Of a stretch of DNA of 64,000 bases, positions 18,018 to 20,132 are shown piece by piece; the stretch's first letter is position 1; each line of letters begins with the position of its first letter. The notes beneath the pieces were generated by a model. That model did not search any database, was not told the DNA's origin, and saw nothing but the letters and a program-made list of their open reading frames with translations. Location: contig OZ245880.1 of assembly GCA_965229495.1 (NCBI GenBank), positions 518,603 to 582,602 on the forward strand, read 5' to 3'. Source of the DNA: Gammaproteobacteria bacterium. GTDB lineage: Bacteria > Pseudomonadota > Gammaproteobacteria > CBDBNL01 > G965229495. The translations under genes and the position numbers were made by a program.

Positions 18018-20132
18018 GTGGCGCTACGCACTGCAATTCTCTTCTCCGGTCGCGGCTCAAATATGGCAGCGCTACTGCAAGCCGCGCCCGAGGAGCTCGA
18101 TTTCGTGCTCGGCGTTACCGATAACCCGCAAGCTGCGGGGCGTGAGGTGGCTCGGAAGCATGGCTTAGCTTGCGAGTTGCTGGAGGGCGCTGACAAGTCC
18201 GAGCGCGAGGCGCAACTGCAGCGCTTGCTGCGCCGCCAACGCGTAGAGTTAGTATTGCTCGCTGGCTTTATGCGCGTGCTCTCGGAGCAATTCGTCGACG
18301 CCTGGTATGGGCGCATTCTCAATATTCACCCGTCTTTGCTACCCAAGTTCAAGGGCTTGGCGCCGCAAGCGCAGGCTTTGGCTGCGGGGGCTAGCTATTC
18401 GGGCGCCTCGGTGCACGTGGTAACTTCTGAGCTCGATTCCGGCCCAGTGCTGGCGCAAAGCCAAGTGCCAATTCTGACTAATGACGACGCCGAGCAGCTC
18501 TCCGCGCGCATCCTGCGCGCCGAGCACGAGCTTTACCCGCGCGCCGCTGCCGAGTACGCGGCGTATTTGCAACAGCAGCCGCCGAGCTCCGAGGGCGGCC
18601 TTTTGCCCGTGCCCTTCTCGGCGGTGAAAGAGGAATGCGGTGTGTTTGCTTGCCATTCGCCTATAGACGCTTTGCCTTTGACTATCTTCGGTTTGCACGC
18701 GCTGCAACACCGCGGCCAAGAAGGCGCTGGCATTGCCACTATCCACCAAGGCAACATCAGCGCGCATCGGCGCGCTGGCTTGGTCGGCGACGTCTTCAGC
18801 AAGTCGGCTTTGGCGAGCATAGACCTGCCCGGGACGCAAGCTCTGGGGCATTTGCGCTATTCGACTTTCGGCAGCAAAGACGGCGACAATCTGCAGCCTT
18901 TCGTAATGCAGACGCGCTTTGGGCCTTTGGCGCTGGCGCACAACGGCAATCTTACCAATCTCGACGAGCTGCGCTCGGACTTGCTGGAAGCTGGTCAACT
19001 GTTTTTCACCGATAGCGATAGCGAGGTTTTCCTGCACCTGATATCGCAATCCGAGAGCGATGATTTGGCTGAGGCTTTTGCCGAGGCTTGCCTGCAGGCT
19101 GCGGGCGCCTTCTCGGTGCTATTGCTGACGCCGCAGGGCATCTACGCCGCGCGCGACCCGGCTGGTATCCGTCCGCTGTGCTTGGGTCAACGCGCCGAGC
19201 ATATCGCCATTGCCTCGGAGTCTACTGCCCTGGAAGCTGCTGATATCGATTGGCGCTTCGATCTTGACGCGGGTGAATTGGTGCATATTTCTCTGGAGGG
19301 CAAGATCGCCCGCCAGCGTTACGCGCCCGAGGTCGAGCTCCAGCAGCAGAGCTTTTGCTCCTTTGAGTACGTCTATTTCATGCGCGCCAATTCGGCTTTT
19401 AATGATCGCTACACGGCTCGGGTGCGCGAACGCATCGGTATGCAGCTACTGCGCGAGGCGCCAGCGCTGGCTGATTACGTGGTGCCGGTGCCCGAGAGCG
19501 GCATATTCGCTGCCATCGGTTATGCGCAGGCCTCGCGCTTACCGTTTCATTTTGCCATCCTGAAATCGGCTTACGTCGGGCGTACTTTCATCGAGCCCGA
19601 GCAGAGTTTGCGCCATTTCGGCGTGCGCCTGAAGTTATCGATAGACCGCTGGCAGGTGCGCGCGAAGCGCATAGTGTTGGTGGACGATAGCATCGTGCGC
19701 GCCAATACTCTGCCGAAATTAATAGAGCTGTTGCGCGCTGCCGGCGCCGCCGAGGTGCACGTGCGTATTGCCGCGCCGATTATCGCCTATCCGTGCTTTT
19801 ACGGTATCGATATGCCGTCGCGCTCCGAGCTCGCTGGCGCCGAGCATAGCGTCGCCGAGATTTGCCAGTTGATCGGCGCCGATAGCCTGGCGTTTATCTC
19901 GGTGCTGGGCTTGGCGCGCGCTATTAACGCTAACAACAACGCCGATATTATGAGTGATGACGCGATCGCGCCTCGGGTCGGCACTTGTACCGCCTGTTTT
20001 GGTGGTGTTTATCCGGTGGCGCTCAGCGATCAGAGTATGCGTCGCGAGCTCGCCGACAGCGATGCTATTTATTCGACCGCGACGCCAGCGCGGTTATTCG
20101 TCAACCCTCGACGTAAGCAATGGCAAAGTTGA
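18018..20132 (+). CDS. in-frame fusion: GAR formyltransferase (PurN) N-domain plus amidophosphoribosyltransferase (PurF) C-domain
   Basis: Residues 1-190 align with PurN (ILFSGRGSNMAALL...NIHPSLLPKF...SVHVVTSELDSGPVLAQ). After a short linker, ...EECGVFACHS begins a complete PurF (class II Gln amidotransferase plus PRTase). There is no stop between the two domains. Confidence 0.8.
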   Translation: MALRTAILFSGRGSNMAALLQAAPEELDFVLGVTDNPQAAGREVARKHGLACELLEGADKSEREAQLQRLLRRQRVELVLLAGFMRVLSEQFVDAWYGRILNIHPSLLPKFKGLAPQAQALAAGASYSGASVHVVTSELDSGPVLAQSQVPILTNDDAEQLSARILRAEHELYPRAAAEYAAYLQQQPPSSEGGLLPVPFSAVKEECGVFACHSPIDALPLTIFGLHALQHRGQEGAGIATIHQGNISAHRRAGLVGDVFSKSALASIDLPGTQALGHLRYSTFGSKDGDNLQPFVMQTRFGPLALAHNGNLTNLDELRSDLLEAGQLFFTDSDSEVFLHLISQSESDDLAEAFAEACLQAAGAFSVLLLTPQGIYAARDPAGIRPLCLGQRAEHIAIASESTALEAADIDWRFDLDAGELVHISLEGKIARQRYAPEVELQQQSFCSFEYVYFMRANSAFNDRYTARVRERIGMQLLREAPALADYVVPVPESGIFAAIGYAQASRLPFHFAILKSAYVGRTFIEPEQSLRHFGVRLKLSIDRWQVRAKRIVLVDDSIVRANTLPKLIELLRAAGAAEVHVRIAAPIIAYPCFYGIDMPSRSELAGAEHSVAEICQLIGADSLAFISVLGLARAINANNNADIMSDDAIAPRVGTCTACFGGVYPVALSDQSMRRELADSDAIYSTATPARLFVNPRRKQWQS

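Follow-up and report, generated by a model that had tools for sequence, protein, structure and literature searches.

In a window of 64,000 nucleotides from a gammaproteobacterium (contig OZ245880.1 of assembly GCA_965229495.1, positions 518,603 to 582,602; "the window" means this whole stretch), two genes of purine synthesis, purN and purF, are joined in one reading frame, with a complete PurN enzyme placed ahead of the catalytic cysteine of PurF. This is an evolutionarily fixed gene fusion and not an artefact. Because the catalytic Cys of N-terminal nucleophile (Ntn) amidotransferases must be residue 1, other domains should be fused to them only at the C-terminal side; a clade in which a whole enzyme precedes the Cys shows what amounts to a "forbidden" domain order for an Ntn enzyme. 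The reading that we favor, with a probability of about 0.7, is that a single precursor would be cut between Glu206 and Cys207 by propeptide self-processing, releasing PurN and PurF in a 1:1 ratio. A whole enzyme would then, in effect, serve as the pro-region of an Ntn amidotransferase.

A sequence-only reading of this DNA had described a single 704-residue open reading frame (ORF) that passes from PurN into PurF without a stop, had placed the PurF catalytic Cys about 207 residues inside the polypeptide, and had located the gene between purM and purD. All of this is borne out: the frame is uninterrupted with both domains complete and above profile cutoffs, Cys207 matches residue 1 of the mature Bacillus subtilis PurF chain, and the flanking genes are those named. 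The fused gene, its parts and its neighbors, which encode aminoimidazole ribonucleotide (AIR) and glycinamide ribonucleotide (GAR) synthetases, lie as follows.

16975..18015, + strand: purM (AIR synthetase), with AIRS and AIRS_C domains; its TAG stop and the GTG of the fusion are 2 nt apart
18018..20132, + strand: fused purN-purF ORF, GTG start, 704 codons plus stop, uninterrupted, identified from the ORF listing and from domain and structure matches
18018..18575, + strand: PurN (GAR transformylase) domain, residues 1-186, with the NIHPSLLP motif and the aspartate of ELDSGPV
18636..19337, + strand: PurF Ntn glutaminase domain, residues 207-440, with invariant R232, G233, R280, N309, G310 and D334
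19338..20027, + strand: PurF phosphoribosyltransferase domain, residues 441-670, with the [4Fe-4S] ligands and the phosphoribosyl pyrophosphate (PRPP) motif VLVDDSIVRANT
19356-19358, 19794-19796, 19986-19988 and 19995-19997, + strand: codons of the [4Fe-4S] ligands C447, C593, C657 and C660, respectively
20028..20132, + strand: C-terminal tail, residues 671-704, and TGA stop, overlapping the purD start
20120..21388, + strand: purD (GAR synthetase), which starts at an ATG 13 nt before the fusion ORF ends and overlaps the stop of that ORF

Both enzymes are recognized in full by curated profiles. The PurN equivalog (NCBIfam TIGR00639) covers residues 4-181 at 176.1 bits against a cutoff of 150.1, and the PurF equivalog (TIGR01134) covers residues 207-665 at 411.5 bits against a cutoff of 350, spanning profile positions 1-431 of 432. 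Pfam places Formyl_trans_N at residues 4-176, GATase_6/7 at 273-406 and Pribosyltran at 482-582. The PurN domain matches PurN structures in the PDB with a best E of 1e-39, and the best solved-structure match of the fusion as a whole is B. subtilis PurF (1AO0/1GPH, E = 1e-109), residue 1 of whose mature chain aligns with Cys207. An AlphaFold2 model of the fusion (mean predicted local distance difference test score, pLDDT, 88.8; predicted template modeling score 0.69) shows two domains predicted with confidence and, between them, a coil at residues 187-207. The PurN part, with a terminal helix at 158-186, reaches a pLDDT of ~95, and the first PurF strand, residues 208-213, begins directly after Cys207.

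The catalytic residues of both enzymes have been kept. PurN in the window carries ILNIHPSLLP and SELDSGPV, and NIHPSLLP and D(S/G)GPV are retained in every fused homolog; these motifs hold the catalytic Asn-His-Asp that we take to correspond to N106, H108 and D144 of Escherichia coli. On the PurF side, C207, R232 and G233 (the Arg-Gly of HRGQEG), N309 and G310 (the Asn-Gly of HNGN) and D334 (the Asp of SDSE) are invariant across an alignment of 64 fused and unfused sequences, as are E206 and G208 beside the catalytic Cys and all four Fe-S cysteines. The latter (C447, C593, C657 and C660) align with C236, C382, C437 and C440 of B. subtilis PurF. The PRPP-binding loop of a type I phosphoribosyltransferase, VLVDDSIVRANT at residues 552-563, aligns with VMVDDSIVRGTT of 1AO0, and its residues D556, D557, S558, V560 and R561, together with T564, are invariant in the same 64 sequences. 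As judged from its sequence, the window PurF is a complete enzyme of the Bacillus-type [4Fe-4S] propeptide class and, because the glutaminase residues are invariant, glutamine-dependent activity would evidently have been retained.

The fusion is shared by a whole clade. A survey of related genomes, suggested by the sequence-only reading, found it in at least 8 further clusters drawn at 90% identity, with more than 100 sequences from independent assemblies. By whole-protein search the fused homologs are P0001 at 98% identity to the window protein, P0002 at 76%, P0003 at 74% and P0004-P0008 at 63-67%. Cluster sizes are 33, 6, 59, 4 and further, from separate assemblies, and the 98%-identity cluster alone contributes 33 members on contigs of up to 4.3 Mb. 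The contigs that carry the fused gene come from both short-read and long-read assemblies with 10-43x coverage and a G+C content of 44-62%. In all fused relatives the fusion follows purM and precedes purD, with purC and purL usually next in line. A neighbor-joining tree of the mature PurF part groups the fused sequences in one long-stemmed clade, a pattern that indicates a single old fusion event, since retained. An exhaustive search of 1.84 billion representatives collapses the PurN-PurF clade to one cluster at 50% identity. The fused clade was not among the matches listed in a genome-collection scan with generic PurF peptide patterns; those matches included distant unfused PurFs (at most 44% identity), and the apparent "full-length" matches were merely nearby purN and purF genes.

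The origin of the fusion can be read from unfused operons. The nearest unfused PurFs (P0010-P0018) are ~52-54% identical in the mature part and occur in the same operon. Two loci, L089 (P0012) and L090 (P0014), have the order purM-purN-purF-purD with separate genes for PurN (197 and 183 residues) and PurF (502 and 496 residues) that overlap by 4 nt (ATGA), and the ATG of purF has a Shine-Dalgarno (SD) sequence (GAGGA, GGGAGAAGG) 5-10 nt upstream. Their PurF propeptides, of 22 and 20 residues, end in REE↓C and KEE↓C, where the arrow marks the position directly before the catalytic Cys. At greater length these endings read ...LPFDxxxxxLREE↓C and ...FEPWGLKEE↓C, the propeptides of unfused relatives having the general form ...PF(D/E)xxxL(R/K)EE, and the linker of the fusion (residues 187-206, ...GGLLPVPFSAVKEE↓C) matches their C-terminal part, which shows that PurN became joined to PurF through PurF's own propeptide. 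In an ancestral purM-purN-purF-purD operon in which purN and purF overlapped by 4 nt (ATGA), a change at the junction did away with the purN stop and brought purF into the purN frame, and PurN (~186 residues) was thereby joined to PurF via the former N-terminal propeptide. The unfused relatives resemble the fused clade in gene order, in PurF sequence and in the ...PF..xL(R/K)EE↓C ending, and differ from it in that the purN stop overlaps the purF ATG, purF has an SD of its own, and the enzyme body is better conserved than the propeptide. The sequence-only reading had asked whether orthologs in close relatives are two genes with a conventional ATG-Cys start. The close relatives, at 63-98% identity, are all fused; those at ~52% do have two genes, with an ATG and a propeptide of 20-22 residues before the Cys instead of ATG-Cys.

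The junction itself, which in the window reads ...SAVKEE↓CGVFACHS, contains the following elements.

18576..18635, + strand: linker, residues 187-206, predicted coil; the distal part (187-194) is variable, and pLDDT is <50 for residues 192-205
18600..18635, + strand: proximal linker, residues 195-206 (GLLPVPFSAVKEE), a propeptide remnant and the putative P side of the cleavage site
18603..18605, + strand: in-frame TTG (Leu196), with GAGG 8 nt upstream (18591-18594); not conserved
18624..18626, + strand: in-frame GTG (Val203), four codons before the Cys, with no SD upstream; not conserved
18636..18638, + strand: codon of catalytic Cys207, at the putative scissile bond Glu206↓Cys207

The peptide GLLxVPFSxVKEE in this linker is more conserved than the catalytic domains. 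Across 8 fused genes the proximal 12 residues show 87.5% amino acid identity, compared with 71% for PurN and 80-83% for the PurF domains. Identity in the fused clade is 79% over the 12 residues that precede the Cys, against 73% for the PurF body, whereas the same 12 residues in unfused groups are 50-71% identical, against 80-89% for the enzyme body. Fused proteins end the linker in (K/R/N)EE↓C, a motif shared with propeptides whose removal is documented (PMC7056826 and PMC13421311). Synonymous codon diversity in the linker, at 0.55-0.58 versus 0.59 +/- 0.07 for the gene as a whole (8 fused genes), is normal. A conserved peptide with normal synonymous variation points to selection on the translated product and not on an RNA signal for initiation.

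These observations fit a particular path of maturation. One precursor of 704 residues would be translated from the fused gene, and its PurF part belongs to the Bacillus, plant and animal [4Fe-4S] class, in which a propeptide is removed to expose the Cys as residue 1. An intramolecular self-cleavage of the Ntn type would cut Glu206↓Cys207, yielding equal numbers of a PurN of 206 residues, the last 20 of them a tail, and a mature PurF of 498 residues. We infer both the cleavage and its autocatalytic nature. Sequence-level proxies for removal of a pro-sequence are present in the conserved (K/R)EE↓C motif and the predicted disordered linker, and Cys207, which would be the P1' residue of the predicted internal scissile bond, stands directly ahead of the first PurF strand in the model and aligns with the mature N terminus of solved PurF structures. 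Precedent comes from the plant enzyme: when Arabidopsis GPRAT2(75-561) is produced in E. coli its propeptide is lost, and Cys87 is the first ordered residue; mutating Cys87 abolishes activity, and a free N-terminal Cys is required in the PurF family (PMC7056826). Mature human PPAT seen by cryo-electron microscopy likewise is without its propeptide (PMC13421311). Of the two mechanisms that the sequence-only reading had proposed, autoproteolytic release is thus the one favored, by the EE↓C motif, the propeptide-derived linker and the conservation of its peptide, while independent initiation found no support as a conserved feature.

Some points weigh against self-cleavage of a single precursor. 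We know of no PurF for which cleavage of a folded pro-region of 206 residues has been shown. Documented PurF propeptides have ~11-12 residues, and in plants, whose precursors are longer, another protease first takes off a transit peptide. In work that Li, Smith and Zalkin are said to have published in J Bacteriol in 1999, autocatalysis in vitro was reportedly never proven for B. subtilis PurF. There is no second purN or purF within the 64-kb window, which covers only part of the genome, and, as its sequence might permit, minor initiation at TTG196 could occur in the window genome. As for the linker peptide GLLxVPFSxVKEE, it might have an added function in a self-cleaving two-enzyme polyprotein, gating maturation on [4Fe-4S] insertion or remaining docked after cleavage and so keeping PurN and PurF (steps 3 and 1 of the pathway) in a noncovalent complex, a minimal bacterial "purinosome"; we offer this tentatively and think it rather doubtful.

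Among the alternatives, an artefact in which a missed stop or frameshift joined two ordinary genes is very improbable. Unfused purN and purF are read in different frames with a 4-nt overlap, so one indel error could fake a fusion, and some isolated examples look suspect. One is P0009 (locus L082, 3223-5388), a 721-residue PurN-PurF fusion on a contig of 2x coverage that keeps an ATG at position -22 and nests in an unfused group (P0011, P0012 and P0016, at 78-80% identity). Its junction differs from that of the unfused sister L089 by 19 nt in a highly diverged alignment, not by a single indel, and it is either an independent second fusion or an assembly error. Enzymes lie upstream of the PurF Cys in a few other proteins also, namely PurC-PurF (P0165, P0173 and P0216), PurL-PurF (P0176) and PurQ-PurF (P0253), with junctions of the form ...xE(E/A/Q)↓CG; nearly all are singletons on short metagenomic contigs that may be artefacts, and we do not count them as independent confirmation. 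The clade that includes the window is of another kind, as the fusion there has been recovered by independent assemblies and technologies, persists through divergence to 63% identity and over a wide range of G+C content, and is accompanied by decay of the ancestral start and SD, which an artefact does not explain. We reject an error of sequencing or assembly for the main clade on the strength of the many assemblies and the decayed start and SD; for P0009 alone such an error may apply. Unlikely too, if less so, is a nested gene, with PurF made mainly from an internal start at GTG203, TTG196 or GTG198, its propeptide short and conventional, and the long ORF an incidental read-through. The GTG four codons upstream of the Cys that the sequence-only reading had singled out does exist, as do in-frame GTG198 and TTG196, the latter with its GAGG 8 nt upstream; a start at TTG196 would leave a propeptide of 11 residues, which we take to be the length in B. 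subtilis. Against this, a comparison of nine fused genes over the 32 codons that precede the Cys found no codon column with a start in all nine and no conserved SD. One gene (L087) has no ATG, GTG or TTG anywhere in those 32 codons. Codon -4, which is GTG203 in the window, is GTG in just 3 of the 9 genes and otherwise GTC (2/9), ATC (2/9), ATA (1/9) or CTG (1/9), so that initiation there as a conserved feature fails; the two Leu columns are TTG in 4 of the 8 genes of the main clade, and at -22/-23, where the ancestral start lay, most fused lineages now have ATT, CTA, CTC or CTG. The GAGG before TTG196 is alone among SD-like motifs in being suitably spaced from a start, and it occurs only in the window, whereas the unfused relatives have a clear SD and ATG. 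With no conserved start codon, SD or suppression of synonymous variation in the linker, an internal start is rejected as a conserved feature.

The remaining alternatives concern the fate of the polypeptide. It might stay whole as a bifunctional enzyme, with a PurF that uses only ammonia or whose internal Cys works without a free alpha-amino group. PurF enzymes do keep ammonia-dependent activity when the glutaminase is disabled. Stable purine fusions are also common, as in PurN-PurH1 of Halobacteria, eukaryotic GART and PurC-PurE (PMC3261824). Even so we assign this outcome little probability: Cys207 and the Ntn apparatus (R232, G233, N309, G310 and D334) are invariant in the fused clade, which is unexpected for a dead glutaminase, the (K/R)EE↓C processing motif is not only retained there but more strongly conserved, and the family's need for a free N-terminal Cys (PMC7056826) speaks for cleavage. 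The cut might instead be made by a separate cellular protease at the exposed linker, which the model predicts to be disordered and accessible, and the reported lack of proof for strict autocatalysis in vitro by the B. subtilis enzyme leaves room for this. For the Ntn enzyme to become active, such a protease would have to cleave precisely in front of Cys207, and Arabidopsis GPRAT2 is correctly processed in E. coli, whose own PurF has no propeptide (PMC7056826), which argues against a dedicated protease; we regard this as slightly less probable again than the uncleaved enzyme.

If self-cleavage of the precursor is correct, processing of a PurF propeptide can release a large folded domain, and the fusion would be a natural, stoichiometric, self-cleaving metabolic polyprotein in bacteria. 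A less likely implication is that the rule of the free N terminus can be bent. The fusion may also offer a clean system for the old question of whether removal of the PurF propeptide is autocatalytic and dependent on the Fe-S cluster, and the linker might find use in the design of self-cleaving tags.

Public records largely conceal the fusion. Within the P0001 cluster gene callers mostly start the protein at an internal Met (residue 16, giving 689 residues) and not at the GTG at 18018 (704 residues, as in P0127), and where the fusions have names these are only "amidophosphoribosyltransferase", which hides the PurN function. By either route the PurN function is lost from the records.

The close packing of purM, purN-purF and purD (18013-18020 and 20120-20132) suggests translational coupling. 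Near the second of these junctions, a 15-codon stretch at 20025-20075 (codons ~668-685) has the lowest synonymous diversity of the gene, 0.37 compared with a mean of 0.59 (standard deviation 0.07) across 8 fused homologs. This stretch, ~50-100 nt upstream of where purD starts, belongs to the conserved C-terminal tail and could reflect an RNA-level signal for purD translation or an effect of the alignment.

Judged by PolA homologs, the organism belongs to an uncultured and deep lineage of gammaproteobacteria whose named relatives (Ca. Tenderia, Thiohalobacter, Acidihalobacter and Thiotrichales) are 53-56% identical, while the nearest named matches of its PurF are from Alphaproteobacteria and Rhizomicrobium. 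A gammaproteobacterial host thus has a PurF of Bacillus or alphaproteobacterial type, in a purM-purN-purF-purD(-purC-purL) operon and not in the scattered arrangement of E. coli, and the pur operon may have been acquired horizontally. Scans of the 64-kb window for rRNA, tRNA and Rfam families found nothing. Just upstream of the pur operon, between a GNAT acetyltransferase gene and ccmA, lies a gene for an NmFic-type protein adenylyltransferase Fic (15576-16181, + strand; NF046029, 302 bits). Three ORFs had no NCBIfam match at E <= 1e-20: one of 1131 residues at 58710-62108 (- strand) and two on the + strand at 12426-13163 (245 residues) and 38916-40223 (435 residues). A phenylacetate catabolism cluster at 2945-11416 (- strand) points to a free-living heterotroph and includes the following genes.

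4702-6057, - strand: PaaK ligase
7260-9281, - strand: PaaZ
9275-11416, - strand: FadJ/PaaH-like hydratase-dehydrogenase

The closest known systems are the processed PurF enzymes themselves. B. subtilis PurF (1AO0/1GPH), human and chicken PPAT and Arabidopsis GPRAT2 (6LBP) share with the fusion the TIGR01134 class, the four Fe-S cysteines, the ...EE↓C ending and exposure of the catalytic Cys by removal of preceding residues, a step that here would be analogous. Their pro-regions are short and nonfunctional, at ~11-12 residues (plant precursors have a transit peptide ahead of the propeptide), whereas that of the window protein has 206 residues and contains a complete, apparently functional PurN. 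Glutamate synthase's large subunit, GltB, is another class II Ntn amidotransferase, with a presequence of ~36-44 residues that is removed to expose Cys1; this presequence is several-fold shorter than the pro-region of the fusion and has no enzyme domain. Among heterodimeric Ntn hydrolases (penicillin G acylase, cephalosporin acylase, gamma-glutamyltranspeptidase and glycosylasparaginase) one precursor is cut autocatalytically right before the nucleophile. As predicted for the fusion from its sequence, the N-terminal product in these enzymes is large and folded, not a discarded peptide. They belong to an Ntn family other than that of the class II amidotransferases, and their N-terminal fragment contributes to the Ntn fold or active site itself, whereas in the fusion it would be an unrelated, autonomous enzyme of the same pathway.

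Multienzyme fusions in purine synthesis, such as the trifunctional GART of eukaryotes (PurD-PurM-PurN), PurC-PurE/PAICS and halobacterial PurN-PurH1 (PMC3261824), resemble the present one in joining neighboring pathway genes, with PurN a frequent partner. They differ in that they stay covalent, and none puts a domain upstream of an Ntn enzyme. In public data PurF, where fused elsewhere, is usually the first domain, as in PurF-PurN (P0021, P0135, P0179 and P0214), PurF-PurM (P0188) and PurF-PurD (P0034). A literature search found no paper describing a PurN-PurF fusion. The fused gene combines known kinds, namely the propeptide-type PurF, purine-enzyme fusion and Ntn autoprocessing, and what sets it apart is the order of its domains.

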